Of a stretch of 64,000 nt of DNA, positions 16,607 through 61,166 are shown one piece after another. Made by a program: the position numbers and the translations under genes. Each line of letters starts with the position of its first letter. Within the stretch, counting starts at the first letter, position 1. This DNA is from Escherichia coli. Lineage in GTDB: Bacteria; Pseudomonadota; Gammaproteobacteria; Enterobacterales; Enterobacteriaceae. The stretch is from NCBI RefSeq assembly GCF_045037415.1, contig NZ_CP173440.1. One strand, 5' to 3'. The notes beneath the pieces were generated by a model that was not told the origin of the DNA, did no database searches, and worked only from the letters and a program-made list of their open reading frames with translations.

Positions 16607-17109
16607 TTGAGTGTGATGGTTACGAGCCCACCAGCTTTCATGAATTGTCCCGCCGGGTGGACTGCTATAAAGTGCATACCAGCACTGCAGCCCCTGCCGG
16701 TGATGAAGAATAATTCCGTTCAGGCGAGTATTGAGCAAGACCTTTACTACGTATTAAAACCTGGTACTCCGGGATGACGATGCCTGAGGTGCTTACCACC
16801 GGGAGAAGCAATTCGTTTATGGCGCCAGCAGCTGGTACCTGGCAGAGTTAAGTTCTTATCGCAAAGGATGATAAAAATGAGCCATGGCAAATGTGAGCCG
16901 ACAAACACGAATGCCGCCGATTACAAGCTGTACGCGCGATTCGATGCTGGTGAAACGCTTGAAAGCGTTTTAGCCTCTCCTCCGACCACGAAGCACAATA
17001 AAGTAACTTCTGAAGGAAACATCAGGACTGAACACAGAATGTGGATAGCGTGGAGAAAGAAGCATCCCAGACCACTCTGATTATCAGTGACGATTAATAA
17101 GGATAAAAC

Positions 17110-17424
17110 ATGCGAACGACAAGTATCACCCTGTGTCTGGTTTTGGCGAGTTTTGGTGTATCCGCTAAAATCCTTGCAGACCCAGACCTTACTTACCAGG
17201 CAAATAAAACGTGTGCTAAACGAGATGAACTGGAACTGAAAGTCCCTTTAGAAGCCAATAATCCCTACTCTCCCACATGGGGTTTGGACAAGGGCATGGT
17301 GCAGGCCACAATTGACGCACTGAAAGAAAATCCAGACATCGCCCCGACTGACTCTGTAGCCTGCCAACAGGCTGCAATAAAACAGTATCGGGCTGGGCAA
17401 AAACACTACAGTAAGCTCAGGTAG
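17110..17424 (+). CDS. Small secreted protein (104 aa)
   Basis: N-terminal signal peptide MRTTSITLCLVLASFGVSAKILA, with an AAGGA-like RBS upstream. Confidence 0.5.
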   Translation: MRTTSITLCLVLASFGVSAKILADPDLTYQANKTCAKRDELELKVPLEANNPYSPTWGLDKGMVQATIDALKENPDIAPTDSVACQQAAIKQYRAGQKHYSKLR

Positions 17425-17629
17425 CTGCCGTGATGCCCACCAGCTGAAACCTGTGTGTGGTATAAAAACCCCGTAGCGCTGGTGCAAAACAGACCAGCGC
17501 ATTCCAGTTCTCAATCCCCTTCTGTGATGTAGGCCCCTGTCGCATTCAGACCTGAATAACCGTGCAGGGAAACATGTCAGTAAGCCATCTGGATACAAAA
17601 ACTGGTGGTATAGCCACTTTAGCTTAAAG

Positions 17630-17649
17630 CTAATGTATGCGTACATTAG
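17630..17649. promoter_or_regulatory. 20-bp hairpin palindrome CTAATGTA-TGCG-TACATTAG
   Basis: 8-bp perfect arms, just downstream of the 160-aa gene. It is a twin of 18171-18190. Confidence 0.6.
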
Positions 17650-17666
17650 TTTTAAGTTTATGTTAT

Positions 17667-18149
17667 TTACCCTTCTCCCTTCCTGGATGCCTTAACCTGG
17701 GTCTGATAGTTGCGCTTTACCCGCTCAATTTCCGCCAGAGTTGCCGCCCAGTGCAGCCCTGCGGCGTGACGATATCTGGTTGCCATTTTTTCAACGGCCT
17801 CCGGAGTGCTGTCATCGCTGCGGTGCTGCCGTCCCTTCACCCCGAAAATTTCCACTATAAGCCACTGGCTACCGGTTCTGCCGAACAAGGCCTGACACAG
17901 CCGCCTCACGGCAAGCGGGGTCAGATCCGGGTCGGGATCATACGCGATGGTGGCAAAAATAAAACGCAGCATCTCAGAGGTTTTGTAGCGTTTTACCGCT
18001 GCCGCCAGCCGGGCAGCTCTTTGCGGCGCTTCCCAGCGGTCGTCGCTGTAACCTGCCACTTCAGAGAGATAGTCCTTCTCGAGTTGTTTAGCCGTGTAGC
18101 AACGTCCCCCCAAAAACATCCGCATAGCTTCTTTCGTTTCAGCTCTCAC
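17667..18149 (-). CDS. Hypothetical 160-aa protein bracketed by twin palindromes
   Basis: GC-richer ORF with no family recognised. Confidence 0.5.
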   Translation of the reverse strand: MRAETKEAMRMFLGGRCYTAKQLEKDYLSEVAGYSDDRWEAPQRAARLAAAVKRYKTSEMLRFIFATIAYDPDPDLTPLAVRRLCQALFGRTGSQWLIVEIFGVKGRQHRSDDSTPEAVEKMATRYRHAAGLHWAATLAEIERVKRNYQTQVKASRKGEG

Positions 18150-18170
18150 GAATCTTGTCCTCAGCCAAAG

Positions 18171-21702: not shown

Positions 21703-22770
21703 CTATAGCGACTTGTTAGGATCATTTAGCAAAAACCAATCCCGAAAGGCCTGCTTGCTATCGAAGGTGGGAAGGTTATGTATGGACAAGTTCCAGTTAA
21801 TGATTTTCACTATAAAAGACAAAAATTCAATTTCAGCCTCATTCAGTACACCCTCTCCTTTTTTCCGTATATAGAAGTCATACCATCGTTCGTAGGCGGC
21901 AACATTGATAGATTCAGATGCTTCCAGAAGCCGGGGGATATAATAAACCAGTTCTTCAAAGGCAATACTGCCTTGAGGGATATCAGAACGGCTCAGGCGA
22001 CAAAGAAGGTTAATCGTGGCTCGAAGGTGATGCCACTGCTGTGCCGGGGAGGATGGGAGGGCGTTCATGCTTATCGGAAGTTCATGAGGAATTAAAGCAA
22101 GGATCTGATTTCCACTGGTAGACAGCTCACGCCGGTACTGGTGTAGAGTATGGTGTTTAACCTTCTTCATCATAGGATGGTAGATCCATTTTTTCGCTTC
22201 CTCAGAAACGAAAAGTAACTTTTCTATCGCATCCATCATCTTTATGCCTTCTCCACTCTCACGATATGGAGCGATGATACTTTCAATCCGAACGGCATCG
22301 ATCTCCACCAGCGCCAGCTGGTCTGTTTGCGCTAACAGGTCTGGATTGGGCTGGATATCCTCCGACGTATCATTAATAAATATCCCGATTGTCGTATCGT
22401 TACATATCCCTGTGAGGTCAGCATTAAGGCCACAAACAATCCCACCACCAGCGAGATTTTTGAGGTTAACTATCCCTTTCTCCTTACCCTGCAGAAGATG
22501 AGGGAGAGCAAGGTATTTTTTTTCCTGTATTTTCACCTTTATGTATTTTTTTATATGTTGTAGTGTGAGCTCACTACAAACCCCTTTTACTTCTGTGCTG
22601 TGGCTAAAATGCCATTTTTTATTTTGACCCTGTTTGGCAATCAGGGAGGTCCCACAGATGAGGCAGATACAGTTACACGAAAGCCCATTTTCAACGCTGG
22701 CGATATCAACAATTTTATTTGAATCCGTATCAAATCCAAACGGGATCCATTTTTGTGCATTACGTCGCAT
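21703..22770 (-). CDS. Hypothetical 355-aa protein with a CoiA-like zinc-ribbon N-terminus
   Basis: N-terminus GLSCNCICLICGTSLIAKQGQNKKWHFSHS resembles the CoiA-type Cys/His cluster. The rest is unassigned. Confidence 0.45.
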   Translation of the reverse strand: MRRNAQKWIPFGFDTDSNKIVDIASVENGLSCNCICLICGTSLIAKQGQNKKWHFSHSTEVKGVCSELTLQHIKKYIKVKIQEKKYLALPHLLQGKEKGIVNLKNLAGGGIVCGLNADLTGICNDTTIGIFINDTSEDIQPNPDLLAQTDQLALVEIDAVRIESIIAPYRESGEGIKMMDAIEKLLFVSEEAKKWIYHPMMKKVKHHTLHQYRRELSTSGNQILALIPHELPISMNALPSSPAQQWHHLRATINLLCRLSRSDIPQGSIAFEELVYYIPRLLEASESINVAAYERWYDFYIRKKGEGVLNEAEIEFLSFIVKIINWNLSIHNLPTFDSKQAFRDWFLLNDPNKSL

Positions 22771-22855
22771 GTATATTCCTCGTTAAAAATGAGTAAAGGA
22801 ATTCTACATCATCCGTTTTTATCAAACCTGGAATAACAGCGTCTAATTACATTAT

Positions 22856-23110
22856 TCATATCTCATCGGGGATGAGATGCCACATGGAAGCAGGTATTTT
22901 GTCATAGTTTTTTTTCATGTAGATCTCAGCCCTGCGGTGATCATAAGCTCCGTTCAGGCTGGTTATCTTATTCATATCCCCACCTTCATCATTTAATTTA
23001 TCCAGGATACGCTCAAACACTCGGTCAAGGGTTTCAGTCGTACTGCACTTTCTGAACTTCAGGAGATAGGTTTCTCTCAGGCTACTGTGCGCATTTGGGC
23101 TTTTCAACAA
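22856..23110 (-). CDS. hha: Hha/YmoA-family modulator (H-NS co-regulator)
   Basis: TYLLKFRKCSTTETLDRVFER...AYDHRRAEIYMKKNYDKIPASMWHLI aligns by eye with E. coli Hha ([21 protein letters not shown]...[26 protein letters not shown]). Confidence 0.85.
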   Translation of the reverse strand: MLKSPNAHSSLRETYLLKFRKCSTTETLDRVFERILDKLNDEGGDMNKITSLNGAYDHRRAEIYMKKNYDKIPASMWHLIPDEI

Positions 23111-25196: not shown

Positions 25197-26333
25197 ATGA
25201 CAGATAAAACCAAACTGGTTGCTATCTCACGAACCGATGACATAAGTGCTCTGGATGCACTCAAGCTGTTGCGGTTTCGCCGGTACAATACGGCCAGAAG
25301 TCAGTTAAGGGTCACGAGTGTCTGGTCTGCATGGTGCGCCAGGCACGGTCTGACCCCCTTCCCGGTCACAGCGGTTGATGTCGAGCGCTATATTAATGGG
25401 CTGAATGGATCCGTTAAAATGGCGACTATCTCTCATTTTATTGCATGCCTTTCAAGCGTTAACAGCAGCCTGGGTTTTCCAGACTTCCGCAACGTTCTGA
25501 TAAAAGCACTGGTTCAGGTATGGCGGGCGCGGGAGAATGAGAAAAAAATCGTCACCGGTCAGGCCCTTCCATTTCTTATATCCGATCTCAATATTCTTCG
25601 CCGGTCGCTGCATAAAAGCGACGACCTGAGAGACATACGGGACCTTGCAATGATATGGGTTGGGTTTGAAACCCTGCTGCGTAACGTGGAAATTCGAAGG
25701 ATTAAAACCGGCGACCTGAAATGGCAAAATGACACGTCCTGTTACCTTCTGGATGTCATGCGGACCAAGACAAGCCTTTCAAGTAACCTGACATTTCAGC
25801 TCTCACCACAATGCAGTCAGCATGTCAGACGGTTGATTGAGACGGTGGAATACACCGATACCGAAACCTTCGGGCACCGTTTTCTTTTTCAGCCTGTAAA
25901 CATCCATACGAACCGATATTTCCCGTCCACCAGCAGTAAGCTATCCCGGGGTAAATCCATAGACAGGATGCTGGTCAAAGCAGGATTCAGTGAGGGGTTA
26001 CTGACGCAGTTACAGAATGAATCAAAGGTATCACGGGAAGATGTTGGAATGCTGTCCTCTAATTCACTGAACCAGGCATTTGCACGCCTCTGGGGGATTG
26101 CCGGGAAGGTCAGCGACAGTAACCGACAGTCCGGGCGGTACCGGACATGGACAGGACACAGTGTGCGTGTGGGGGGAGCCATAGAGCTGTTTAAGGCCGG
26201 GTACTCACTGGAAAAGATTACCGAGATGGGGAACTGGTCTGATCCAAAGATGGTCTTCCGTTATATCCGTGGATATCTTGCCAGTGAAAAAGCCATGGTA
26301 AGCTTTATGCGTAATCATCTGGACGACATATAG
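25197..26333 (+). CDS. Tyrosine site-specific recombinase
   Basis: C-terminal catalytic pattern ...WTGHSVRVGGAIELFKAGYSLEKITEMGNWSDPKMVFRYIR (HxxR...Y). Confidence 0.8.
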   Translation: MTDKTKLVAISRTDDISALDALKLLRFRRYNTARSQLRVTSVWSAWCARHGLTPFPVTAVDVERYINGLNGSVKMATISHFIACLSSVNSSLGFPDFRNVLIKALVQVWRARENEKKIVTGQALPFLISDLNILRRSLHKSDDLRDIRDLAMIWVGFETLLRNVEIRRIKTGDLKWQNDTSCYLLDVMRTKTSLSSNLTFQLSPQCSQHVRRLIETVEYTDTETFGHRFLFQPVNIHTNRYFPSTSSKLSRGKSIDRMLVKAGFSEGLLTQLQNESKVSREDVGMLSSNSLNQAFARLWGIAGKVSDSNRQSGRYRTWTGHSVRVGGAIELFKAGYSLEKITEMGNWSDPKMVFRYIRGYLASEKAMVSFMRNHLDDI

Positions 26334-26351
26334 ATTTTACTGAGAGAAACG

Positions 26352-26383
26352 CCAGCACTCAGCAACATGTTTCTGAGCGCTGG
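26352..26383. terminator. Hairpin between convergent genes
   Basis: CCAGCACTCAG pairs with CTGAGCGCTGG (one mismatch) between the stops at 26333 (+) and 26399 (-). Confidence 0.45.
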
Positions 26384-26398
26384 TCACTTATGAACTTT

Positions 26399-26716
26399 TC
26401 AGATATTCAGTTCTTTCAAATCTGTCACAACAAAATCCCCTTTTCCTGAAAGACTGTCAAAATCATCGAGTGTAAATTCATGGGTGTGATACCAAATGAC
26501 CCTGCATGTGGGGCAGGTAACAGGTAACAAATCTTCCGCTAACTTTTCGCTGTTATGGATAACCTCACCCATCTCGTTATGTTCGACAATATAACCACTT
26601 ATGCAAAGGGTTTCGTACCCATGAGCACCGGTAACAATATGGGTTGCTGTTCTCTCACGAATTTCCCCATTAATTTTAATCTGCTCTCGAGTGGTAATCG
26701 TTCTTTTATTATTCAT
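26399..26716 (-). CDS. Hypothetical 105-aa protein
   Basis: ORF only. Contains a CPTC motif. Confidence 0.4.
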   Translation of the reverse strand: MNNKRTITTREQIKINGEIRERTATHIVTGAHGYETLCISGYIVEHNEMGEVIHNSEKLAEDLLPVTCPTCRVIWYHTHEFTLDDFDSLSGKGDFVVTDLKELNI

Positions 26717-26867
26717 GAAAACTCCGGATGATATTTAAAAACGGCTGACATTGCTCCCTGCTTCGGAATAATTGTGAAGGCAGCCAGGAAACCTGAAAAT
26801 ATGTTACCCTGTGCCTGAATCAGTTCTGGTGCGTCTCACGAATGAAAATGAGAGGCGATATCATGGA

Positions 26868-31327: not shown

Positions 31328-31368
31328 CTTACAATGATAGTACTCAAAGCTTTCACTACCTTCCCAGT

Positions 31369-31605: not shown

Positions 31606-31620
31606 AATTAGCTCTCCTAA

Positions 31621-47668: not shown

Positions 47669-47699
47669 AAAAGTAACTTTCCTGAGCAAGTTACTTTTT
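47669..47699. promoter_or_regulatory. Inverted pair of the backbone palindrome (AAAAGTAACTTT-N6-CAAGTTACTTTTT)
   Basis: The two sites are centred at 47675 and 47692 in a 490-bp intergenic region. Confidence 0.55.
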
Positions 47700-48945: not shown

Positions 48946-51900
48946 TTAATTAATTGAATTACCAGTTACAGGATCAACGTAGACAGAGCCTACCTCACAT
49001 ACACTTGGTCTCGGAAGGTATGAACAATCTACATTGCTGCCATTAATTGCCTGCACATTCTCTTCTCTCGCTTTGGTCATATTGATACTACCCCCCATCG
49101 ACTCCAGTGTTCGCTCCGAGGATAATTGCGCTTCGTTATTTTTATATGGCCCCATATTAGCTACAGTACTCTCTGTGAATGCTGCGTATTCATCCGGGAC
49201 TTCCCCCGCTACAACAGCTGATTCAATATACTCAGTCATATCTATTTTATCCCAGTCAAGTTGTTGCACCTGTGAGATAGTTAATCCCACACAACCACTT
49301 TCTACTGGTTTAATTCCCAATTGCGGATATGCCTGCTGCATTATTACTCTTGATAATAAAGAGTTATAACAGCACATGTCGGTAGCTTTTTTAATGCACT
49401 TCTTAGTGAAGCCAACGTTTAGATATTTAACACAACGATCGGTATCAATGACAAAACATGCCCCTTGGTTTTTGTGAATTGACGCTTCCATCTCTTTTTG
49501 GTCACAAGCCAGAAGCATTTCGAGAAGCATTTTTGTGATTTGATAGGCAGTATATATCCAACCAACTATGTTTAAAGCTAACATAAAATTCTGAACAGCA
49601 CTGGAGAAAACTGCCTGTCCAAGTTGTGTGGTGGCCGTCTTATCAAACACAAAGTCCCTGATTGCATCGGGCAACATGTCGTAAGCTTTATTCATCAACT
49701 GCTGTTTTATTGCAGCAAGGCCGCCGGTCTGTAAGCCGTCTTTGGTGAGTTCTGTTGTAACAGCGGAACCTCCCCCTTCAACTGTTGAAGAGCCAATAAG
49801 TCTCGAGACGTTTCCTGCAATTGATTCATAAGCAGAAGTTAGCGGTTCAGTCACACGTTGCCACATTTGGCCCACGCTTGAAGATACACCTGAGGTCCAT
49901 TGTCCGACAGAGTTCGTCATCGATGCCCACGTACCTGACTCACCACCAGTCCAGGTTGTCAGCTTTGCTGAAATTTTTTCCCAGTTTGTATTTCTGAGCA
50001 TTGTACCGGCTAATATAATTGCCTCTAGTTTCCCAGCTGCACCTTGAGGAGCTTCACAACAATCCGTTTTTGCCAACCCGTTTACAAAGCCTACAGAACG
50101 GCCACACCATTGCTTCTCTCCGGAGAACACAATGCAACTGTTGGGGTCGTTAGGGTCACTACACATAGCATCACCCTGCATGTTCTGAACCATGCTGCTA
50201 TAGGCTGCGACCTTACCGAAATCACTGTTTTGTTCATTCGCACCGGTATTACAAGTACCTCCTGAACATGGGATCATACCAACGCAGGTGTTTGCTTCGT
50301 TTGTTACTGTCACAGTCTTTGTGATTCCTTCATCACAGGTCCATTTTTGTTCGTACATGTAACACTGATTAGTAGCAGAATCGAACCATCCCTCAGCGCA
50401 TGTTTGGCTGGACATAGTGCATGCAGAGTTTGTCGAGTATTTTGAACATGCATCAGGCATATTCTTTATCTGGTCATAGTTGTAACAAGCTTCATTGCCA
50501 TTCTCATCTTTAAGAATATTTCCTGATGCATCATACTGGCATAATTTTTCTTTCCCTAAAGGATCACAAAAATATCCTTCAAGATTAGTTTTCCATGTTA
50601 AGACACCTTTATCACCATCATATAATGGTGAAGCATATTGCAATATAGACTGTGGCAAACGTTTTGTGCCAACATCTAAGTCTGAATACCGATCGAACCT
50701 GCAAAATGAACCAGCTTGCTTGACAACGTCATAACAACCTGGAGGATCCTGTATATGCTTGTCTTCAAGCTTAATATTGTCAAAAATAAGCTCTACTTCA
50801 AAGTATCCTTCCCCACCACCTCCGACCCATACCGTAGAAGACATCTCAACTTCATGATCAGTTTCTTTATAAACGGAGTTTGCAACCTGGCTTGTTATAT
50901 CAATAGGTTCCTTTAATTTATTCGATTTATTTCTCTCCATGCCATTACGTGGTGGGCCATAACCAGGTTCGCGATATTCACCATCGATATGAGCAAAAAT
51001 CTGCTTACCATCAAGATTGACTTGCATGTGGTCATCCCACTCAGCATTTACTATGCTTGCTGATTTTAAGATAGCGTCTTGGTGGAAATGAAGGGTCATG
51101 CTGTTGTCATAAACACCAGTAGACCAGTAATCATTACCACGCTTTCCGAACCATACACGTATGCAATTATCGCCACATACGCTTAGGTCACCATTCCCGC
51201 CTGAGATGTACACTGGAACACTGAAGTCGCGAGTAATAGTGCAACTACCATAATTATCTTTTTTAGGTGCATTGCAGTAATATTCCTTATAATCAGGAAT
51301 ATGTTTTTCTTTTGTTGTGGTAGTTGTCTGTGTTGAACAGTTTTGCAGCCATTGACCCGTTCCAGCTGCAGCGTTCGCTATTTCATTTCTGCCACTTGTA
51401 AACATTGGGTCATTTGGCGAAATATTAGGGGCTGGATTGGATTTTGTTGCAGCCACCAGCGAACGATATGCTTGCCCATCATAACTATTAGCAGTGAATA
51501 ACTGACTCTTACGAGTTTTTATATCGTTAATGAATCCTTTCTCGTCACCATAACTATCACCAGCATTAAACTGAACATCAGCATTATTTTGCTCTGAACT
51601 ATACATTTCAGCTGTATTAGTACTAGTGATCGCGCCTCCAGGATTGGGGTTGTTACTTATAGATATACTTCCATCTTGGTTACGTGAAAGTAACTTTCCA
51701 CCGTTTTCTGAACCTTTTATGTTTATATTATTACCGTTCATGTTGGGTAGCATTACCGTACCAGCGATGTCCGAACCATCAGTTTTGGCATAATTCAAAA
51801 CATCATCATTTGTGAATGTTTTCCCACCATATTTCTTCAGGTCCATTGACGAACTGTTAGTACTATCAAAACCATTTATTTTGTCGGTATAAGAAGGATT

Positions 51901-52131
51901 TTCACTATTCTTATATTTTTCTAAAATGTCCTCTGTAGTTACTGTTGAAGTTCTGTTCGCTGCAGGATTAGAAAGATCAAAATTGTTTTCCAGTTGTTCA
52001 TAAATTTCGTTTGCCGCATAGACTTTCGGTGCCATCACTATATTGATAAGCGTGACATAATACGCCCAACTGAGCGTATTAGTTACGATTGACACAGCTA
52101 CGGCTAAGGAAACTGCCCTTTTAAATTGCAT
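48946..52131 (-). CDS. trhN: TraN/TrhN-like outer-membrane mating-pair stabilisation protein
   Basis: 1061 aa with a signal peptide and a very Cys-rich C-terminal half. Its position after traU/traW matches the IncHI Tra2 order. Confidence 0.75.
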   Translation of the reverse strand: MQFKRAVSLAVAVSIVTNTLSWAYYVTLINIVMAPKVYAANEIYEQLENNFDLSNPAANRTSTVTTEDILEKYKNSENPSYTDKINGFDSTNSSSMDLKKYGGKTFTNDDVLNYAKTDGSDIAGTVMLPNMNGNNINIKGSENGGKLLSRNQDGSISISNNPNPGGAITSTNTAEMYSSEQNNADVQFNAGDSYGDEKGFINDIKTRKSQLFTANSYDGQAYRSLVAATKSNPAPNISPNDPMFTSGRNEIANAAAGTGQWLQNCSTQTTTTTKEKHIPDYKEYYCNAPKKDNYGSCTITRDFSVPVYISGGNGDLSVCGDNCIRVWFGKRGNDYWSTGVYDNSMTLHFHQDAILKSASIVNAEWDDHMQVNLDGKQIFAHIDGEYREPGYGPPRNGMERNKSNKLKEPIDITSQVANSVYKETDHEVEMSSTVWVGGGGEGYFEVELIFDNIKLEDKHIQDPPGCYDVVKQAGSFCRFDRYSDLDVGTKRLPQSILQYASPLYDGDKGVLTWKTNLEGYFCDPLGKEKLCQYDASGNILKDENGNEACYNYDQIKNMPDACSKYSTNSACTMSSQTCAEGWFDSATNQCYMYEQKWTCDEGITKTVTVTNEANTCVGMIPCSGGTCNTGANEQNSDFGKVAAYSSMVQNMQGDAMCSDPNDPNSCIVFSGEKQWCGRSVGFVNGLAKTDCCEAPQGAAGKLEAIILAGTMLRNTNWEKISAKLTTWTGGESGTWASMTNSVGQWTSGVSSSVGQMWQRVTEPLTSAYESIAGNVSRLIGSSTVEGGGSAVTTELTKDGLQTGGLAAIKQQLMNKAYDMLPDAIRDFVFDKTATTQLGQAVFSSAVQNFMLALNIVGWIYTAYQITKMLLEMLLACDQKEMEASIHKNQGACFVIDTDRCVKYLNVGFTKKCIKKATDMCCYNSLLSRVIMQQAYPQLGIKPVESGCVGLTISQVQQLDWDKIDMTEYIESAVVAGEVPDEYAAFTESTVANMGPYKNNEAQLSSERTLESMGGSINMTKAREENVQAINGSNVDCSYLPRPSVCEVGSVYVDPVTGNSIN

Positions 52132-52140
52132 CTCGACTCC

Positions 52141-53178
52141 TTAACCCAGCCACCTTACGCAGCAATCGTTATAACGCCAAAGCATGTATACATAGTTATT
52201 TACACCTATACGTTTTCGTCCGCCCTTCCGTGTCGACCAGTCATGAACAGAATCTCCAAGTCTATGACAACATTCCGGTCCTTCTGCTTCCGGTACGGGA
52301 TACAGCATCGATAGCCTGTACTGTGATCTAGGCATGAAATAACTGAACCTGCGTTCGCACATAGCGTCCTGGCCCATGGTTTTCATCAACATTCCTTGCC
52401 TGTGCAACTTGGTAATCATTCGTTGAGTTAATAATGAGGAAACCCGGACTGAATCGTCATTCGCAAAAACATGGCCGGTTAGCGGATAGAGGTTACCATC
52501 ACAACCTGCACAAAAATGGGCACTCAGATTGTCAGCCCCAGCTGTAACCTTCACACAGTCAGCCGCGCACCACATTGAAGCAATAGGATTTGCGAAAACA
52601 ACTGCCTCAGGATTTAATACGAGCGTAAGCAGGTCATTTTCCCAGAGCGGGTCTACTTCACTAATGTAGGTAAGAGATGGGTCAATATAAGGCTCAGCGG
52701 TACAATCCCCCATAATGAGGAGCTTAAGCATCACCAGGATCGGAAACTCCCATAAGTGAACATCATAAAACCCTGCCTCATTACCCCCTTTGGGCCTGTT
52801 AGTTGCTCCTTTCCCCATATCGAAGCTGGAAGACTGAAGACTCACCCCTTCAAGGAATGGCGAACACCATGGGGACTGTACAACCTCTACTATTTTTACT
52901 GGTTGGAAAAACGACAGTTGCCATCCTACCTCTGGGACCCCATTTTGATCTGTGCAATAACATACTGGCTGAGATGGTGCAGCCCCTTCTGGTGATGAGC
53001 CTACTCCCATAATGCGCATTGGAAAAATACAGCTCCAACAGATGTTTTTAATCAAACCTTTCCAAACACCAGCCGATTGACAGATTCCGCTACCCGTCTC
53101 AGCCCCAATCGCCATTCCTGGTAAAGCCAGGCTGAGCATGACAGCAGTGAATGCTGACAAAAGTAACTTTCGAATCAT
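52141..53178 (-). CDS. trhU: TraU/TrhU T4SS pilus-assembly protein
   Basis: By-eye alignment with F TraU: ICWSCIFP, LNPEAVVFANPIA, KLHRQGMLM and YMLWRYNDCC. Confidence 0.9.
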   Translation of the reverse strand: MIRKLLLSAFTAVMLSLALPGMAIGAETGSGICQSAGVWKGLIKNICWSCIFPMRIMGVGSSPEGAAPSQPVCYCTDQNGVPEVGWQLSFFQPVKIVEVVQSPWCSPFLEGVSLQSSSFDMGKGATNRPKGGNEAGFYDVHLWEFPILVMLKLLIMGDCTAEPYIDPSLTYISEVDPLWENDLLTLVLNPEAVVFANPIASMWCAADCVKVTAGADNLSAHFCAGCDGNLYPLTGHVFANDDSVRVSSLLTQRMITKLHRQGMLMKTMGQDAMCERRFSYFMPRSQYRLSMLYPVPEAEGPECCHRLGDSVHDWSTRKGGRKRIGVNNYVYMLWRYNDCCVRWLG

Positions 53179-54536
53179 TGAGCGGCCTCTTTTTCTGATT
53201 GCTGATTTATACGCGTATACTCGCGTACATCTGCCTGAGCAAACTGCTGTACTTTGAAGTAGGTTCCTTCAACCGATATGATCGTAGGAGTGGACTTAAT
53301 CAGGAACCGGCTAATTATTTCAGGATTGATTTTGTACATCTGCCCATAGAACTGGCCGCGCAACTCCTCTAAATGCTTCCAGCCATCATCACGTTTGATC
53401 CGCGTAAAAATGGGCATCACTTTTCCTTCGCCAAAACGGTGACGAAACTGTATTTTGGCCCATGTCAGCTGCTCGGAATTCATTGGGTCAAAAACGATCA
53501 TTGTCAGTTTCTGTGGAAATTGAGCAAGAGGATTTCCCTTCTGCCCAGCGGCAGCAATGAGGTTACCCTGGTTATCTCTAATATCTTGGTTTACCTGAAT
53601 TGTTGGGTCGATATACCAGATTTTATTCTCGTCAGATACGGGAAGGGACGCCATCCACTGATTTTGCCAAGTTGATTTTATTGCGTTCTTTTTGGCCGCC
53701 TCCCAGTCATATTTATTACTTCTCTCCTCAAGTTCCTGTACAATACTTTTCTCTTTTATAGGGAATGTTTGGGCTGAAACCGGGAAGGTTGTTTTTTCTG
53801 GGTTTTCCTCGATCTGTTTCATGAAATACTTTATGTTAATCGACCCACTAATCTTGTAGGTTTTATCATCTTTTCTGTACACCATCGTTGGAACTTCTTT
53901 TACGCTATACTGGGTAAAACTTTCCGGATCGAGGGTGACTAAAGGTTCTTTTTTTATTTTTGCTTTAGATATATAATCACGCAGCACTACCTGCATCTGA
54001 ATAAGGTTTTCTACACCTTCCTTAAGCCCCCTGAACACCACGCGCGCATTGTTTTCCGATGCTGTTTTAATCAGGTCTATCAATACATAGTCTGGCATGC
54101 TGAATGATGCAAATATTGTCAAGCCATTATCAGTCGATAGTTCTTCATTTTTGTTGTTATCTAATTTACGTTCGAAGTCCTGTGCAGTAATCCCCGACCT
54201 CCCAAACATTTTTTCAACGTTGGAAGACTGGGTTCGCATTGACTCGTTTTTTGACTTGTTAATTGTGTCTGCCTCTTCAGAGAAGGCCTCTGTAGACTGA
54301 TTCTTTTTTATGTCCTGCGCAATATCACTCATCGCTTCCGCTTCTCGCAGCTTACCTGTGTGTTCTATCACCGCACGCACACTGTCGGAGACAGAGCTGG
54401 GATTGTACCGGGGTGTGCCGACAATCGACTCTATGCTTTGAGTCTTTGCATGATCAATAGAGTCATCGGCATATGACAGAGAAGTAGCTAACAGGCAGCT
54501 AAAAAGTAACTTTTTAATACATTCAGAAGATGGCAT
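53175..54536 (-). CDS. trhW: TraW/TrhW-like T4SS protein (long IncH-type form)
   Basis: Taken from the Met at 54536, the signal peptide reads MPSSECIKKLLFSCLLATSLSYA. Gene order is peptidase-W-U-N. The ORF-track start at 54611 is probably too far upstream. Confidence 0.7.
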   Translation of the reverse strand: MPSSECIKKLLFSCLLATSLSYADDSIDHAKTQSIESIVGTPRYNPSSVSDSVRAVIEHTGKLREAEAMSDIAQDIKKNQSTEAFSEEADTINKSKNESMRTQSSNVEKMFGRSGITAQDFERKLDNNKNEELSTDNGLTIFASFSMPDYVLIDLIKTASENNARVVFRGLKEGVENLIQMQVVLRDYISKAKIKKEPLVTLDPESFTQYSVKEVPTMVYRKDDKTYKISGSINIKYFMKQIEENPEKTTFPVSAQTFPIKEKSIVQELEERSNKYDWEAAKKNAIKSTWQNQWMASLPVSDENKIWYIDPTIQVNQDIRDNQGNLIAAAGQKGNPLAQFPQKLTMIVFDPMNSEQLTWAKIQFRHRFGEGKVMPIFTRIKRDDGWKHLEELRGQFYGQMYKINPEIISRFLIKSTPTIISVEGTYFKVQQFAQADVREYTRINQQSEKEAAQ

Positions 54537-55184: not shown

Positions 55185-58100
55185 TCAGTTATTCAATGTA
55201 ATGAAACTTGTCGCTGAATCACCGCTGTCATCGTAAGCCGTTATAGACACCACCAGCTTACCCTTATTTTGAGCTTTGGACAGTGTTGCAGTACTTCCGA
55301 ACACACCACGAACCTGATCATTCACCTTCCAAACATAACTGGAAATCTTGCCGTCAGGATCACTGCATTTTGCAGTAAATGCCCAGCTCAGTTGCGTTTC
55401 AGTGTATGTCAGGTTACATGTAGGAGGCGTGTTCGGTATCACGTCAAAATCAACCACAACAACCCCTCTCTGACCCTGCGTACTGACAACGTCCATTTCC
55501 AGTTTATAACTACCTTCCATGATGTTCTCAAACGTCTGTGACCAGTAATTTTTGCCACCATCGACAGGCTTACCATTCAGCTTAAACGTTACATTGTCAA
55601 TTGAGTCTGCCGAGTGGGCAAGCTTAACACTGGACCTCAAGGACAGGTCCAGCGGGGCCCTCATGAACTTGTTAGAGTATTTGGGAGTAACGCTAATTTC
55701 CATCGGACTCTGTTCGTTCACGATAAAAGTGTAATCAACCCGGGCTTCATTGTTCCTGTTATCCTTCAGGACATACGTCAACGTATGTGTACCCGATTTT
55801 GTTACCTGGAACACTTTCGTCCCGTTATTGTCGCTGGACAGCGTCATCACATTTTTGTCGTATTGCCAGTCCTGGGTGAACACAACTCCAGGATAAGAAA
55901 CATCCACACCAGAGACTGATACGGTGAGTTCCGAAGGTATCATGGTGTATTTCAGTTTTGTATTCAGGCGTGGCTCCGGGAATTTGTATACCCAGGATTT
56001 TACGCTGATTTTCCGTTTTGCTATGGTTCTGTCTTTTGCCTCCGGCATGTAGGCCTGATACGTAAACGTTGCATACCCACGTTCATCTAACATGTCTTCG
56101 GTCAGGACGGTATCCAGCAGCCCCCCCTGTTTTACGCTTCCATCAGGGAGCACCCACTCCTGGACAACTTTAGCATCAGATGAGTACTCGATATTAGGGT
56201 TCGTGTAGGTACCCTGCAAAGTAACTTTTTTACCTACCTCTACCTGCGAGTTCCCCTCAACCTTAACCGACAATTTCTTATGCTTAATGACAGTGACACG
56301 AGCACGAGTTTCTTTCCATGCCGATTTCCCGGCCATCTCGTCGGTTTCGGTGTACCGTACTTTTGCAAAGATATACTTTGGCACCTCCGAGGACGTAATC
56401 ATGTATTTAACCCCCCCCTCAGTCCATTCCTCTCCATCCTCTGACCACTGGACTTCAACTGCACTACCTTGTACATCTTCATTGTTATCAGTCAGTGTCA
56501 CCGGGATGCTATGCCCCTCAAGAACCTTTCCAACCGAGATAACAGGTTTAGGTTCCCGGTAAGCAACCACCGTGAGATTATCGGTATATGAGACCTTACC
56601 TGTGTATTTGTTGGTCAGTTTGGCGCGGTAAAGCCACTTACCTACTTCTTTTTGTTTGATGCTTACGCTTCGAAGTCCGGTCATATCTTCAAGCGTATTC
56701 CAGGTTGATCCATTGTTACTGGACATCTGCCATTCAGTCGGACTCAGGGAATCATAATCATCGGTACTTTTCGTTCTGAATGAGACCATTGCTGACAGAG
56801 GAACTCGGCCTACAATAAGCGATTTAGACAGCCCACCTTCGAGGTTGGCCCCTTTATACACCCTGATACTTGTTGTTGATGTCTCACGTTTGAGTACAAA
56901 ATCTTTAAACGGACTGCGTACCGTAGCTACTGCGATGATGCGGTGACTACCCAGAGTCAGATCGTCCATGTTGAGCTCACCGGTCGCAATCCCCTCAGAG
57001 TTAACGGGCAGATCACCGGTCAGAGGAGTTCGCTCAGTTACCGAAACATCTTTACCGGTTTCTTCATCCGTAACCCATTTAGAGGTAACTTTGTAAACCA
57101 CCACATCCCACTGCCCCATTGTGGAGGCATCGTACAATGTACAGTTACAGCTGTTATTCCATTGGCCGATGTTTACCGATACCGGTACTTTCAAACTCGT
57201 TGCTGATTTACGCTCTGCAACTTTCATATAGGCACGAATACTGAAGTTTGGAACAGTATAAACTTTGAGCACACTGGATGACTTTATACTGGCTTCATTT
57301 TCGTAGGAAGCTTCGATGTTTACATTCGTTTGCGTCCACAATGGCGCTGCAGGTACTTTTATACGCTCAGAATAAGTTACCGGCGTATCACCACCTGATT
57401 TATTCTTGTAGGTTTTAGTTTCAGCGTCCTGGCCTTCAACCTTAGTTGTAAGGACAACGTTAGCCGGTACTGATTTTGCAAGCACCTTAGCTGCGTCCCC
57501 ACCAGTGATATAAACCAGTGCTGTATCCTTACCAAGAGTCTCTACCGTTTTACTCATCTTGTATGAAATTTCAGGTGCAAACGGTTCAACGGCTTTAACG
57601 GTTTTACGGTTATGAGTGGCAATGGCTTTAGAGCCTTTTGTATTAATCACATAGACGTTGTAGTCAAGGACGTTATCGCCAACTTTAGAGAAGTAACCCG
57701 TCAGGCCAGGAACTTTAGACTTCGAGTAAAATTCGAGACCAGATGGAACGTTGTTCCACTGAACATAACAGGCCGTTCCATAAACCGCAGTTCCGAACTG
57801 GCTAAGAAACGCCTGAGCGTCTTCTTCAGTAGAGAAAATCTTACAGGTATTCCCTGATTGCTGAGTAACCAGCGAAGTGTAAGGACGGACGTAACCGTAA
57901 ATCGTAGACGCTGATTCGATGGACTTCAGAGTGAAAGTCATCGGCATATAGGTAAAATCGATTGAATAGGTTTTGGATATACCGTTAACATTCTCAGCAA
58001 CAACCGTCAAAGTATGGACTTTGTTTGTTTCGAGTGACGGCATCGGCTTTAACCGGTAGATCCCTTTGACGTTTGTGGGAGTGTATGAAGCCATGACGTT

Positions 58101-59426
58101 ATCAATGACAACGCTCTTGATGTCGGCAACACCCTCTTCGCCCTGGAATGCAGCAATAACGATCTCATTCAGGAAGTACACCTGGTCCCGCTTAACAAGC
58201 TCTGAGCCGTCCTTGAAAACGGAAACAGATGGTTCATCAGACAGTATAAGTTTAGATTCCGGTTCGGTATAACTGGAATCATTGCCCGCTGTATTAGACA
58301 CAGAATATGTTGCAACGTAAGAAGCGCTGGCCAGATCGCTTATATCAAAAAAATAAACAAATTTACCCGCAACTTCCTGATATCCGGCGACAGGTTGAAG
58401 AGTTCGACGGGACGGAGTTGACCAAATTTTGTTAAAATTAAGCTCCGTACCATCATCTAAAGTAACTTTTGTCATTGGAGAGAAGCTACCATCAGGAGCA
58501 AGTGTGAGCGACATTGCAGCAGGTTTCCACCAGTCATTGGTATCTGACCGGGCAGGAACCGAGACAGCTACAGCGATCGTCTGCGGAGCAACGTAGATAT
58601 CTTTATCTCCGATCTTGAATGACCGAGCTTCTTTAGAGACGTTCCAGAAGGTATTGTCTATCGCTGGAGCGCGGTAATCCCAGCTTAATCTCACCTTAGA
58701 GGTTACTGGTGGGGAGAAGTAATTATTGAACGAGTTTAAGGTTACGCCTACATCCCTGCTTCCGAAATCGGAACTCCCATCACTGATGCCTACGCTTCCG
58801 GTCGTTATAGAACATTTTGAGGCTCCTGCAGCAATGGCGCAGGATGTCCCAGAACCGACAGACGCGACCATATCGTAGTCTCGGGGTTCAACGGTTATAT
58901 CAATATTTGAGAGTGTCTCGTTTTTAATGTATGACGTCAGTGTTGAACCGGAAGAACCGTTGCTCATTGAACCTTTTATAGAAGTAATCACAGGAGCTAC
59001 AGGCGCAACAGTCTTGAAGTTGTACTCCCCTTCCTTGACTATGACTTTTTCACGTTCTGAGCCCGAGTAGTAAACGATTTGCCATGGAAGTTTGATATCC
59101 CCAGCGATGGCAGGGATGCCCTTCAGTGAGAACCCATTAGCAATCGGCATACCGGAATTATTAGGTAACCATTCAAACACACATTTCAGGCTACCAGCCG
59201 TACTTTTGACATTAGGATCAGAGGACACCTCGCATCCCTCAGATACCGGAATAGCTGTAACCGTACTTTCTTTCACGAAGGCCGTATTTACTTGTGAACT
59301 GGTAGAAAATTTGACATCTGGTAATGACGTTTCCAGGGTACCGGAAACCATTATCGATTCTGCGTTTGAAAAAGCACTGAACACAGAACAGAACATCAGG
59401 AAAGAGATTTTATTAATTTTAGTCAT
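55185..59426 (-). CDS. Very large secreted beta-rich surface protein, probably with bacterial Ig-like repeats (resembles the IncHI RSP-type protein)
   Basis: 1413 aa. It has the signal peptide MTKINKISFLMFCSVFSAFSNA and a repetitive T/V/S/K-rich beta-strand composition, and sits just upstream of trhP. The Ig-like call comes from recalled IncHI literature, not a computed domain hit. Confidence 0.55.
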   Translation of the reverse strand: MTKINKISFLMFCSVFSAFSNAESIMVSGTLETSLPDVKFSTSSQVNTAFVKESTVTAIPVSEGCEVSSDPNVKSTAGSLKCVFEWLPNNSGMPIANGFSLKGIPAIAGDIKLPWQIVYYSGSEREKVIVKEGEYNFKTVAPVAPVITSIKGSMSNGSSGSTLTSYIKNETLSNIDITVEPRDYDMVASVGSGTSCAIAAGASKCSITTGSVGISDGSSDFGSRDVGVTLNSFNNYFSPPVTSKVRLSWDYRAPAIDNTFWNVSKEARSFKIGDKDIYVAPQTIAVAVSVPARSDTNDWWKPAAMSLTLAPDGSFSPMTKVTLDDGTELNFNKIWSTPSRRTLQPVAGYQEVAGKFVYFFDISDLASASYVATYSVSNTAGNDSSYTEPESKLILSDEPSVSVFKDGSELVKRDQVYFLNEIVIAAFQGEEGVADIKSVVIDNVMASYTPTNVKGIYRLKPMPSLETNKVHTLTVVAENVNGISKTYSIDFTYMPMTFTLKSIESASTIYGYVRPYTSLVTQQSGNTCKIFSTEEDAQAFLSQFGTAVYGTACYVQWNNVPSGLEFYSKSKVPGLTGYFSKVGDNVLDYNVYVINTKGSKAIATHNRKTVKAVEPFAPEISYKMSKTVETLGKDTALVYITGGDAAKVLAKSVPANVVLTTKVEGQDAETKTYKNKSGGDTPVTYSERIKVPAAPLWTQTNVNIEASYENEASIKSSSVLKVYTVPNFSIRAYMKVAERKSATSLKVPVSVNIGQWNNSCNCTLYDASTMGQWDVVVYKVTSKWVTDEETGKDVSVTERTPLTGDLPVNSEGIATGELNMDDLTLGSHRIIAVATVRSPFKDFVLKRETSTTSIRVYKGANLEGGLSKSLIVGRVPLSAMVSFRTKSTDDYDSLSPTEWQMSSNNGSTWNTLEDMTGLRSVSIKQKEVGKWLYRAKLTNKYTGKVSYTDNLTVVAYREPKPVISVGKVLEGHSIPVTLTDNNEDVQGSAVEVQWSEDGEEWTEGGVKYMITSSEVPKYIFAKVRYTETDEMAGKSAWKETRARVTVIKHKKLSVKVEGNSQVEVGKKVTLQGTYTNPNIEYSSDAKVVQEWVLPDGSVKQGGLLDTVLTEDMLDERGYATFTYQAYMPEAKDRTIAKRKISVKSWVYKFPEPRLNTKLKYTMIPSELTVSVSGVDVSYPGVVFTQDWQYDKNVMTLSSDNNGTKVFQVTKSGTHTLTYVLKDNRNNEARVDYTFIVNEQSPMEISVTPKYSNKFMRAPLDLSLRSSVKLAHSADSIDNVTFKLNGKPVDGGKNYWSQTFENIMEGSYKLEMDVVSTQGQRGVVVVDFDVIPNTPPTCNLTYTETQLSWAFTAKCSDPDGKISSYVWKVNDQVRGVFGSTATLSKAQNKGKLVVSITAYDDSGDSATSFITLNN

Positions 59427-59553
59427 GGAACGCTCTGATCGTAGTTATGCCATAGTTACATCTAATGTATCCTATGAACAGAGCGTATTTTTCCCATTAA
59501 GGGAAGTATCTTCATTGAAATTCCCGTAAAACGGGAATGGCTGGACAGAAAAG

Positions 59554-60093
59554 TTACTTTTGTAGTTGAGCATTTGCATTAAGACGCATGCACGTTAGAA
59601 CCGCGTCAGATGGAACCCCTGGATTTCGGGCCAGTATGACGGATAAGAGGAAAAGACCTAAGCGAAGGCAGGCGGCAGGATCAATACTAATTTTATGTAT
59701 AAAGTTAATGTCTCGCTCGTCTTTGTTGATAGCTACAACGCCCCCCTCCAACATTGCTGTGGATTTACCATCAAAAGTAACTTTTACGTTTTTGTAGACT
59801 TGCTTATTATGGTGCTTTGTTTTTTTATCTTTCAGAACAGCCTCACGAGTAAGGCGAAGAAACGCCATACACAAAGCGATCACTTCATCATCACTCAGCT
59901 TTGTTGAAAAGGCCTTTTGCCCAGTCCAGTCAAACGCGCCCGGCTTAGATGCTAAAGGCCCAGCAAGGATAAGATTCACACTGCCATTTGTCTCAGAATA
60001 ATTGAGCTCAAGTGCTGTCTTACCGGAATTAAATACCTTTTCATTTCGGTAAGGTTGATGCTGTGGAACATCATTATTTATATTTTCCACCAA
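59554..60093 (-). CDS. Hypothetical 179-aa protein (non-ATG start, TTG/GTG)
   Basis: The ORF begins TTG GTG, preceded by AAGGTGAAGGA. Its stop codon lies inside a copy of the backbone palindrome. Confidence 0.45.
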   Translation of the reverse strand: MVENINNDVPQHQPYRNEKVFNSGKTALELNYSETNGSVNLILAGPLASKPGAFDWTGQKAFSTKLSDDEVIALCMAFLRLTREAVLKDKKTKHHNKQVYKNVKVTFDGKSTAMLEGGVVAINKDERDINFIHKISIDPAACLRLGLFLLSVILARNPGVPSDAVLTCMRLNANAQLQK

Positions 60094-60482
60094 ATATGTC
60101 CTTCACCTTCGTTGATTAAATCCTTCACCAGACCAATGTAGGTATTCCCTCCAGATTGCTTCATCGCAAAAATATAAGCACTGGTCTCTAGCATTAGATA
60201 GTCTCCCGATGGAGCACCAGGTGGAACCTCTGTAGAGCTAAGACTTTTAATGTACTCCTTTTTAACAATAGAAGGAATGTTGTTTATCATTATTGTTTTT
60301 TCATCAACGATCTTAAAATTCATACTGGTTTCAGCGCCCGCCAGACTTACGGCATGAACCGAGTTTTGCTTAAAGCTCGACAGGCTTGGTTTATTCATAG
60401 TTAGAGAATAAATACCTAGCAGGGTAATAAGTGGAACTATGAAGAAACTAACTTTTTTAATACTCACTATCTTCATCGTCAT
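60078..60482 (-). CDS. Small exported/membrane-anchored protein
   Basis: From the Met at 60482 (AAGGGGGA RBS) it reads MTMKIVSIKKVSFFIVPLITLLGIYSL... Confidence 0.45.
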   Translation of the reverse strand: MTMKIVSIKKVSFFIVPLITLLGIYSLTMNKPSLSSFKQNSVHAVSLAGAETSMNFKIVDEKTIMINNIPSIVKKEYIKSLSSTEVPPGAPSGDYLMLETSAYIFAMKQSGGNTYIGLVKDLINEGEGHIWWKI

Positions 60483-60915
60483 CAAATCCCCCTTGGGTCT
60501 GGCATGCAGTAATGTAAAGAATTCTAAGTTGATGTAGGAAATTTTCTGCTGTAGCACCACCTACAAATGTTATCATTCTGTTAATTCTGATGCCTGCATC
60601 TTCAAGTTCAAACTCAGCTATTCCACAATCCGACATTATTGTCATCGTGTTTTCATCTGGGTCTTCATCAAGCGAAGGGGGTATAATAATGGATAAGATA
60701 ACAGTATCTACTGGAGCTATTTCCCAATTGTGTTCCTCTCGGGCCATAGGAATTATCTGAATAAAATACCCATCCAGGATCAAAGAAAGTGGATTGCGGG
60801 TGTTGTCAGCAAACCCAAAATTACTGGTTGCTTCTTCGAAGTTTAAGCCAGAGCGCTCAATAATCTTGAGAAGTTCCTGCTTTCGTACCCCATGGTAAAT
60901 CATGCCATCTGTCAT
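60457..60915 (-). CDS. Acidic 152-aa protein (YbjN/secretion-chaperone-like, tentative)
   Basis: Size, composition and the acidic tail DDDEDSEY. No firm motif. Confidence 0.35.
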   Translation of the reverse strand: MTDGMIYHGVRKQELLKIIERSGLNFEEATSNFGFADNTRNPLSLILDGYFIQIIPMAREEHNWEIAPVDTVILSIIIPPSLDEDPDENTMTIMSDCGIAEFELEDAGIRINRMITFVGGATAENFLHQLRILYITACQTQGGFDDDEDSEY

Positions 60916-61153
60916 CTGTAGTTACTCATGTGCTTTGATGGATAGTGTGTCGCTAAAAATCATACCAAAAACAAAGTATTCCTACCTCAGCCAGAGTGAG
61001 AAAAAGTTAACTTTCGCTCTGAACCTGTAGGTTTATCTAATCTTAGCTTAACATGTAAGCTACCGATATCTGCACCGCTCATAATTCTAAGGGCTCGTAT
61101 TATTCACTTGTTGAACTAGATCATCAATCGAAAGGAACACATTACAACGCGCC

Positions 61154-61166
61154 AAAAGTTACTTTT
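61154..61166. promoter_or_regulatory. Intergenic perfect copy of the backbone palindrome AAAAGTTACTTTT
   Basis: One of three related sites in the non-coding region 60916-61598. The others are at 61001-61015 and 61477-61490. Confidence 0.55.

Follow-up and report, generated by a model that had tools for sequence, protein, structure and literature searches.

A dispersed, conserved palindrome of IncHI plasmid backbones as a predicted KorB-OB- or ParB-parS-like binding site

ParB-family regulators of mobile elements are an established kind, with KorB, VirB, BisD and HerB among them. The operator recognized by KorB on plasmid RK2, OB, is palindromic over 13 bp, with two 6-bp arms around a single free base (TTTAGCSGCTAAA), and perfect or near-perfect copies of it are dispersed over the conjugative backbone in promoter-proximal, promoter-distal and intragenic positions. 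Here we describe a palindrome of the same build, RAAAGT-N-ACTTTY, likewise 13 bp with 6-bp arms and one centre base, on the backbones of IncHI plasmids. We analysed it in a 64,000-nucleotide stretch of Escherichia coli DNA (contig NZ_CP173440.1, assembly GCF_045037415.1; hereafter the window), which matches pNDM-MAR-like IncHI1B/IncFIB megaplasmids of Klebsiella pneumoniae at 100% identity, and in related plasmids. It is a predicted protein-binding palindrome, deeply conserved and specific to IncHI plasmids, that resembles KorB-OB and ParB-parS but is four to seven times denser.

The likeness to RK2 extends to the proteins: KorB belongs to the ParB family, and the IncHI-encoded candidate binders match this family, with a structural model of one of them (B, below) matching KorB best. 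The two systems nevertheless differ in several respects. KorB acts together with KorA and serves as the ParB in IncC/KorB partition, whereas the IncHI candidates are orphans present as two or three paralogs, and the sequence of the IncHI motif is unrelated to OB. RK2 has 12 OB sites in 60 kb, compared to 50–92 sites on IncHI plasmids.

A second parallel comes from the IncC plasmids, a sister family that shares the MOBH/MPF_F type and also carries palindromes scattered between and inside open reading frames (ORFs). The 12–14 scattered palindromes of IncC ParB (core TTTCACATGTGAAA) are mostly intergenic, with four in ORFs, and are bound in electrophoretic mobility shift assays (PMC10954446). Blind palindrome counting on the IncC plasmid NC_021815.1 recovered five perfect copies of ACTTTCACATGTGAAAGT in short intergenic gaps between positions 261 and 12995. 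In IncC, however, binding is by the ParB encoded in the parAB053 operon, and the parA promoter contains one of the sites, whereas the region upstream of IncHI parA is without the motif; the IncHI copies are also four to seven times more numerous, and sequence and arm geometry differ. The parS sites of IncC are hijacked by SGI1.

Other systems share single traits. Noc of Bacillus subtilis is a ParB paralog that acts without a ParA partner at dispersed palindromes, of which there are about 70 (NBS sites), but it is chromosomal, tethers DNA to the membrane and blocks cell division, while the IncHI sites favour the 5' ends of genes. VirB of the Shigella virulence plasmid, with virS, and BisD of ICEclc, with bisS, are ParB-family, CTP-dependent regulators whose palindromic loading sites have a single centre base. 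VirB is described as counteracting H-NS silencing, and BisD slides about 50 kb and activates transfer promoters (PMC12409273); IncHI backbones are known H-NS/Hha targets (PMC7366339). Unlike the IncHI motif, VirB and BisD have one to few loading sites, VirB is P1-ParB-like, and BisD has an extra activator domain and a partner, BisC. The stoperators of phage L5 and the C1 operators of phage P1 are single short operators dispersed between and inside transcription units, through which one repressor silences the genome. They resemble the IncHI motif in that many copies of one short operator are scattered over a mobile genome, but they are asymmetric and orientation-dependent, their repressors are not of the ParB family, and phages are not conjugative plasmids.

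Set against these systems, IncHI plasmids show a dispersed, backbone-restricted palindrome, sites near promoters, far from them and within genes, and a ParB-family gene with predicted N-terminal nucleotide-binding and helix-turn-helix (HTH) domains, all as in KorB/OB. They show neither the adjacent ParA partner of KorB nor the motif copy in the parA promoter of IncC.

Copy number and distribution of the palindrome

An earlier, sequence-only reading of the window had reported 20 copies of the 9-mer AAGTWACTT, and both the count and every listed centre proved exact; dinucleotide shuffles gave 0.68 copies (maximum 3). Seventeen of these W-centre copies extend to the 11-mer AAAGTNACTTT, which together with three S-centre copies again occurs 20 times, against 0.15 expected from dinucleotide shuffles and 0.4–0.6 from third- and fifth-order Markov models. 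The full palindrome AAAAGTWACTTTT accounts for eight sites, as that reading had it. Its list of G- or C-centre sites was correct for 31164 and 61484 but incomplete, lacking a third at 46665 (GAAAGTCACTTTC). The variant with a 2-nt centre that it described, AAAGTTAACTTT, is present at 61003–61014, but a single copy is not significant by itself. All window sites lie between 17.0 and 61.5 kb. No motif copy is found in the window below 17001, nor in the toxin-antitoxin / IS200-IS605 / TnpB block at 42.4–46.35 kb.

The pattern extends to whole plasmids. The complete pNDM-MAR (267 kb) holds 92 cores and 87 perfect 11-mers, nearly all of the form RAAAGT-N-ACTTTY, and complete R27 holds 50 cores and 46 perfect 11-mers. 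In both plasmids the motif is the most frequent k-mer (for k = 9–12 in pNDM-MAR), and among the gapped palindromes of pNDM-MAR it alone is strongly enriched, with 87 copies compared to 7 for the runner-up. It is likewise the top k-mer in syntenic regions (37–49 kb) of five other plasmids: two from Raoultella (79–82% nucleotide identity), one from Citrobacter (replicon typed IncHI1B), an R27-like IncHI1 plasmid and an IncHI2 plasmid. One Photorhabdus contig and one IncHI-like contig from a metagenome also contain it. In the resistance and transposon regions of pNDM-MAR, by comparison, there is no copy, and 40 kb of an IncC plasmid contain one 9-mer core only. The motif therefore survives both a count on whole plasmids and a comparison with unrelated DNA. 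The IncHI backbones examined carry 50–90 near-perfect copies per plasmid and their accessory DNA is free of the motif; the earlier statement that the motif tracks the old backbone holds for pNDM-MAR and agrees with the site map of R27.

The sites are close to all-or-none. Perfect 11-mers number 20, 87 and 46 in the window, pNDM-MAR and R27, against about 0.1–1 expected. Perfect sites thus exceed expectation about 100-fold while one-mismatch variants are barely in excess (35 seen, 13–27 expected), as with parS and OB. The weight matrix reads R(A66/G27)-AAAGT-[T39 A37 G9 C7]-ACTTT-Y(T70/C26), with random flanks. A and T are about equally frequent at the centre overall (37 A, 39 T), and within genes the sense strand more often has T there (26 T, 10 A). 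Neither chance nor codon usage accounts for the copies, as expectations from dinucleotide, Markov-3/5 and codon-shuffle nulls reach at most about one, and the flanks of the copies are unrelated to one another, as they would not be in a repeat element. Closely spaced pairs with centres 17 bp or 14 bp apart recur (window 47669–47698, pNDM-MAR 213377/213394, R27 2020/2034), which suggests adjacent or cooperative binding by two dimers. Among the matches listed by a scan of genome contigs for copies spaced 5–35 bp from each other were unrelated taxa, each with one pair attributable to chance.

This distribution bears on the idea that one of the host's DNA-binding proteins, an Enterobacterales factor, recognizes the palindrome and that IncHI plasmids accumulated sites to recruit it. 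A slowly evolving factor would easily explain why the motif is identical where backbone proteins share 30–60% identity, and why it appears in Photorhabdus. Against such a factor, the motif is absent from co-resident accessory DNA and, apart from one 9-mer core, from an IncC plasmid of the same hosts; moreover, near-perfect, all-or-none sites in 50–90 copies typify systems in which site and protein are dedicated partners, KorB-OB and ParB-parS for example. To our knowledge, no enterobacterial regulator has this consensus. We regard a host factor as quite improbable.

Two other kinds of dispersed element were considered. Oriented motifs such as Chi, KOPS and uptake sequences are asymmetric and strand-biased, and the IncHI motif is a perfect palindrome. 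The Ter sites of a Tus fork trap are asymmetric, about 23 bp long and present in few oriented copies, as opposed to a symmetric 13-bp motif in 50–92 copies with random flanks, so this candidate was rejected; the plasmid Tus-like proteins are themselves only 23% identical between lineages. The Tus-like gene holds the palindrome in both lineages, once in the window (27943–28902) and twice in R27 (162022–162981), at differing positions within the gene. Among the commonest 9-mers of pNDM-MAR after the palindrome are forms of Chi (GCTGGTGG), namely CCACCAGCA (31 copies) and GCTGGTGGA (24 copies). Other repeated 12-mers there, GACTGCGAACAA with 14–18 copies and CAGTCGGATACC with 13, probably belong to arrays, e.g. 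iterons, CRISPR repeats or Ig-like repeats.

Selection on the DNA and placement at genes

The sequence-only reading had held that the constraint acts on DNA rather than peptide, and three lines of evidence bear this out. First, codon-preserving shuffles of the 48 genes annotated in the window (annotation taken from NZ_CP072809.1) left a mean of 0.80 sites (at most 4 in 300 shuffles), compared to 14 observed. Second, the ten arm positions diverge by only 1.2% and 1.9% from the two Raoultella plasmids, while their flanks diverge by 20–22% (p about 1e-13); the centre base, at 19–24%, diverges at the neutral rate. Third, five in-gene sites are found at the same position in IncHI1, IncHI2 or both, by codon-guided mapping: 40905 in trhI, 51692 in trhN, 53165 in trhU, and 56223 and 58464 in rsp. 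Local protein identity at these five is 43–59%. Sites are thus positionally conserved on related plasmids, and selection keeps the arms at the DNA level even inside genes.

A coding origin in signal peptides (M-K-K-L-L) was rejected, because the sites are found in every reading frame and outside coding sequence as well, and because codon shuffles remove them. A function as RNA or hairpin was also rejected, because a 6-bp stem with a 1-nt loop cannot fold.

Placement was analysed on the 205.6-kb backbone of pNDM-MAR, which is 80% coding and has 92 site centres. Forty-nine of the 92 centres (53%) are intergenic, compared to 20% expected (p = 1.5e-12), and the other 43 are intragenic. The interval from −150 to +50 of start codons contains 39 sites where 17.7 were expected. 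Many in-gene sites lie no more than 40 nt from the gene start at operon junctions, in the window for example in trhU, trhW and the gene at 30704–30922.

The bias toward gene 5' ends points to transcription and so away from a target of a DNA-modifying or defence-related enzyme, in which the palindrome would be a methylated mark of self or an epigenetic switch. IncHI plasmids do encode several methyltransferases that are orphans: one each of the Dam-family, cytosine-C5 and DUF4942 types and a further one with a site-specific annotation. The pNDM-MAR and R27 versions of the cytosine methyltransferase share 71% identity, and the core GTNAC offers one C and several A per strand. Twelve specified bases, however, far exceed known methyltransferase specificities, and restriction-modification targets are usually avoided rather than enriched. 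We consider a modification target very improbable. Modification and self-recognition, as well as matS-like compaction, had been proposed in the sequence-only reading, and we found no specific support for any of the three.

At several predicted promoters, those at pNDM-MAR 23086, 206882, 252509 and 257924 and at window 61160, the centre of the site lies 28–33 nt upstream of a −35 hexamer; in other places the site is 5–50 nt from the start codon. These pNDM-MAR sites and window 61154–61166 share a module that consists of the palindrome, 21–25 nt, GGGG(n)TTGA (the −35), then after 17 nt TATCCT or TAACCT followed by GG, which places the site centre near −63 to −68.

A centre 28–33 nt upstream of the −35 is an activator-like position, and the palindrome might accordingly be the DNA box of the activator pair TrhR/TrhY, which HtdA antagonizes, and the missing cis-element of the HtdA-dependent regulon. 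Mutation of htdA in R27 raises, at 25 °C, 139 of the 181 genes that are expressed (PMC7366339). R0002, which follows two tandem sites, is up 61-fold in that mutant (PMC7366339), a fold change that we use qualitatively only; R-numbers do not map reliably onto the RefSeq annotation. The HtdA-independent R27 genes (parAB, parM, Tn10, IS elements and cit) sit in motif-free stretches (PMC7366339 and the R27 site map), and the H and AC promoter regions of R27 carry sites. The correlation is confounded, however, since being motif-free and being HtdA-independent both coincide with accessory DNA. The Z promoter region has no match and the F promoter region only a two-mismatch copy, though both are TrhR/TrhY-dependent (operons: PMC7366339), and 81 nt upstream of the first gene of the R operon, which does not depend on HtdA, there is a perfect site. 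About half of the sites are inside genes. Neither TrhR nor TrhY has a recognizable DNA-binding domain (TrhY gives only a weak zinc-ribbon match), and their orthologues are 31–34% identical between lineages. Because F and Z lack close copies, the R operon has a perfect one and both proteins lack recognizable DNA-binding domains, a TrhR/TrhY box is the weaker reading, and we judge it unlikely.

HtdA itself was rejected as a candidate because the protein is acidic, shows 30% conservation and carries no DNA-binding domain, and because its reported action on TrhR/TrhY takes place at the protein level (PMC7366339). The two proteins, encoded at window 60457–60915 (htdA-like) and R27 17061–17513, are 30% identical between lineages and have an acidic C-terminus and no detectable domain; HtdA resembles an anti-activator working at the protein level more than it does a DNA-binding protein.

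Candidate ParB/KorB-like binders

The two densest clusters of sites in pNDM-MAR, at 72.7–75.4 kb and 252.5–253.3 kb, each lie immediately upstream of one gene for an orphan ParB-like protein. The two proteins, A (392 aa, encoded at 71462–72640) and B (413 aa, encoded at 251152–252393), are 31% identical to each other. R27 encodes orthologues of both, a (45191–46348) and b (92336–93541), and a third paralog, c (40890–41966); the a-type protein is R0042, annotated as a partition protein and among the most highly expressed R27 genes (PMC7366339). A site is present 96–116 nt upstream of the start codon of the B-type gene in pNDM-MAR, R27 and two IncHI2 plasmids, with a second about 220 nt upstream in IncHI1 and IncHI2. 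The A-type gene has a site 110–114 nt upstream in the pNDM-MAR and Raoultella lineages. No parA neighbours the A-, B- or c-type genes, the sole ParA pairing with a P1-type ParB.

The family matches Pfam HTH_ParB and TIGR00180, and the c-type protein also scores against the Noc family model. With a family profile, structures of ParB/Spo0J (6sdk, 4umk) and of Noc are matched at 3e-9 to 1e-5. For B, an AlphaFold model reaches a pLDDT around 90 over residues 15–253. In the Protein Data Bank this model is closest to RK2 KorB (structures 8qa9 and 8qa8; for 8qa9, E = 3.6e-8 and a target-normalised TM-score of 0.66), and ParB and Noc come next. A search for homologues beyond IncHI returned mostly further IncHI plasmids and one MvaT-type element that has no enriched palindrome. 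The comparison with KorB that the sequence-only reading had drawn is therefore strengthened, since orphan ParB-family proteins are encoded, the modelled fold of one of them matches RK2 KorB best and their genes lie directly downstream of the densest clusters. It fails for the partition protein proper: the Par1 ParB is P1-type, and its promoter region has no motif.

We favour the reading that the palindrome is the dedicated, predicted binding site of a symmetric (dimeric) IncHI-encoded protein, with the orphan ParB/KorB-fold proteins as favoured binders, and our belief in it is about evenly balanced with doubt. On this model, a dimeric backbone-encoded protein would dock at RAAAGT-N-ACTTTY, at 50–90 near-perfect copies per plasmid; it would be one or more of the A- and B-type proteins in pNDM-MAR and of the a-, b- and c-type proteins in R27. 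The protein would load at each palindrome, as KorB does at OB or IncC ParB at scattered parS, and may then clamp and slide in a nucleotide triphosphate-dependent manner to act on nearby promoters. The result would be control of transcription, nucleoprotein organisation or both over nearly the whole backbone, sparing accessory DNA.

Several observations weigh against this model. None of the candidate genes is in the window itself. Although the motif does not vary, the A/a and B/b orthologues are only 33–36% identical and differ in their predicted recognition helices. Enrichment is limited to a single palindrome despite two or three paralogs per plasmid, and in R27 and IncHI2 there is no site upstream of the a-type gene. 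Plasmid pB19293_1 (NZ_CP142972.1), which is 89% identical to pNDM-MAR, seems to be without a B-type gene, the A-type being its only ParB-like match, and still keeps 13 sites over a stretch in which pNDM-MAR has 14. CTP binding by ParB-CTPases involves the boxes GERRxRA (Box II) and ENxxR (Box III). When the family-invariant R-Q-G-x-C-R-x-R-A is aligned with G-E-R-R-x-R-A, the key second Arg is retained, whereas the Glu and the first Arg are replaced; with a Box II of G-H-C-R-x-R-A in place of G-E-R-R-x-R-A, CTP binding by these proteins is uncertain. Finally, the geometry of site and promoter is not uniform, and promoter predictions around window sites are near chance level.

The same statistics and placement would also fit another plasmid-encoded regulator, a global repressor such as a small HTH or ribbon-helix-helix protein, with the ParB-like genes as members of its regulon. 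Many backbone genes have no assignable function. In addition, mobI, an Ig-like gene and a DUF4942 gene keep an upstream site in both pNDM-MAR and R27, so the link to the B-type gene is not unique. However, no DNA-binding domain was found in the other proteins scanned beside the clusters, and the ParB-like proteins are the sole conserved sequence-specific DNA-binding folds found beside the densest ones. Such a regulator appears fairly unlikely to us.

The Par1 ParB was rejected as the binder of the palindrome: it is P1-type (PF08775), there is no motif near parA, and a separate repeat array lies upstream of parA. The sequence upstream of pNDM-MAR parA (64170–66550) contains no motif, and that of R27 (25339–28464) nothing with fewer than two mismatches. 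This gene-free gap of 2.4–3.8 kb is full of CTGGCGATTAAGGGGG-type repeats, about 20–27 copies in R27 25339–28464, and the same gap occurs in two further sequences (38301–40662 and 37947–41784), where the palindrome is absent. This array is likely to be the Par1 centromere. Four copies of AAAAGTGACCCTA / TAGGGTCACTTTT, in which one motif arm with the centre is fused to CCCTA, lie within 130 bp in the oriT region of R27 (108441–108571); they could represent a related half-site that a relaxosome protein, or else one of the paralogs, recognizes.

Sites across the window and meaning for IncHI plasmids

The window encodes a RepB-family replicon, Hha, a tyrosine recombinase, the Tus-like gene and a toprim / vWA / DUF3150 / AAA block, followed by the trhI helicase, a toxin-antitoxin pair, IS200/IS605-TnpB copies, trhN, trhU, trhW and a signal peptidase, and ends with the Ig-like RSP gene (rsp), htdK/F/A-like genes and the trhO-trhZ operon. 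The leftmost site, TAAAGTAACTTCT at 16999–17011, is weak (9-mer core only) and lies within a hypothetical gene (16200–17195, minus strand). A perfect site, AAAAGTAACTTTT at 22211–22223, is located 91 nt into the RepB-family replication initiator gene (22126–23010, plus strand). The Tus-like gene (27943–28902, minus) contains GAAAGTTACTTTC at 28182–28194, which is kept in Raoultella pRpNDM-1. Another perfect copy of AAAAGTAACTTTT, at 30879–30891, belongs to a small hypothetical gene (30704–30922, minus) and is 37 nt from its start, while the G-centre site AAAAGTGACTTTG at 31158–31170, in a hypothetical gene at 31067–31606 (minus), is not kept in pRpNDM-1.

Two sites in the vWA and DUF3150 genes are kept in both Raoultella plasmids: GAAAGTAACTTTC at 33983–33995 in the vWA-domain gene (33332–35296, minus), and GAAAGTTACTTTT at 35380–35392 in the DUF3150 gene (35360–36436, minus), 26 nt from its 3' end. 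The AAA ATPase gene (36528–37580, minus) has a weak site with the 9-mer core only, AAAAGTAACTTCA at 37293–37305. An intergenic copy of GAAAGTTACTTTT at 40115–40127 lies between the stop of the trhI helicase gene and the next gene, 146 nt upstream of the start at 39975; the equivalent gap in R27 has two sites. Within trhI (40309–42108, minus) there are two perfect sites. That at 40899–40911 is found at the same codon position in five of five related loci, including IncHI1 and IncHI2, where local protein identity is 43–48%; that at 41217–41229 is kept in the Raoultella plasmids and degenerate in the IncHI1/IncHI2 loci.

Beside the IS200/IS605 block, in unannotated DNA, is the C-centre site GAAAGTCACTTTC at 46659–46671 that the earlier list had overlooked. 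The 17-bp pair, also in unannotated DNA, consists of AAAAGTAACTTTC at 47669–47681, about 370 nt upstream of the gene at 48049, and the 9-mer core GCAAGTTACTTTT at 47686–47698, which reads GAAAGTTACTTTT in plasmid p24150. In the transfer genes, GAAAGTAACTTTC at 51686–51698 in trhN/traN (48946–52131, minus) has the same codon position in two IncHI1-type loci, with local protein identity of 52–54%; AAAAGTAACTTTC at 53159–53171, 13 nt from the start of trhU (52141–53178, minus), is kept in IncHI2; and a perfect site at 54502–54514 lies 28 nt from the start of the trhW/TrbC gene (53175–54536, minus).

The Ig-like rsp gene (55185–59426, minus) contains CAAAGTAACTTTT at 56217–56229, at the same position in IncHI1 and IncHI2 (local protein identity 46–48%), and TAAAGTAACTTTT at 58458–58470, which is also kept in both with a varying centre base. 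One perfect site, at 59549–59561, covers the stop codon of the htdK-like gene (59554–60090, minus), 129 nt upstream of the rsp start, and another, at 59773–59785, lies within the htdK-like gene. The divergent intergenic region between the htdA-like and trhO-like genes contains the 2-nt-centre variant at 61003–61014, possibly a decayed or alternative site. The perfect intergenic site at 61154–61166 has its centre 33 nt upstream of a predicted minus-strand −35 hexamer facing the htdA-like operon, and the intergenic C-centre site AAAAGTCACTTTT at 61478–61490 is 115 nt upstream of the trhO-like metallophosphoesterase gene (61599–62402, plus).

Our literature search found no relevant paper containing either 11-mer, AAAGTAACTTT or AAAGTTACTTT, and a search that paired IncHI with palindrome, ParB, ChIP-seq or regulon brought up no description of the motif; a paper on R27 dimer resolution treats KOPS, matS and xrs only. 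We predict chance-level counts of RAAAGTNACTTTY outside IncHI-like backbones.

Among the loads of IncHI-type megaplasmids (R27, other IncHI1, IncHI2 and pNDM-MAR-like plasmids) are typhoid multidrug resistance, mcr-1, NDM and virulence-resistance hybrids. Gene expression on these plasmids is co-regulated plasmid-wide and depends on temperature, and we found no cis-element for this in the accessible literature. The palindrome marks nearly every backbone operon and comes with named candidate binders. Tentatively, and with well under even confidence, we propose that an orphan KorB-like ParB-fold system with 50–90 loading sites per replicon, many of them fixed in coding sequence before the IncHI lineages split, may be the missing cis/trans layer of the global temperature-dependent silencing and derepression of IncHI plasmids, acting with or against H-NS/Hha and TrhR/TrhY-HtdA. 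The motif also provides a simple signature for spotting IncHI backbone DNA in assemblies, and it is a clear example of selection at the DNA level that overrides synonymous and even amino-acid drift inside genes.

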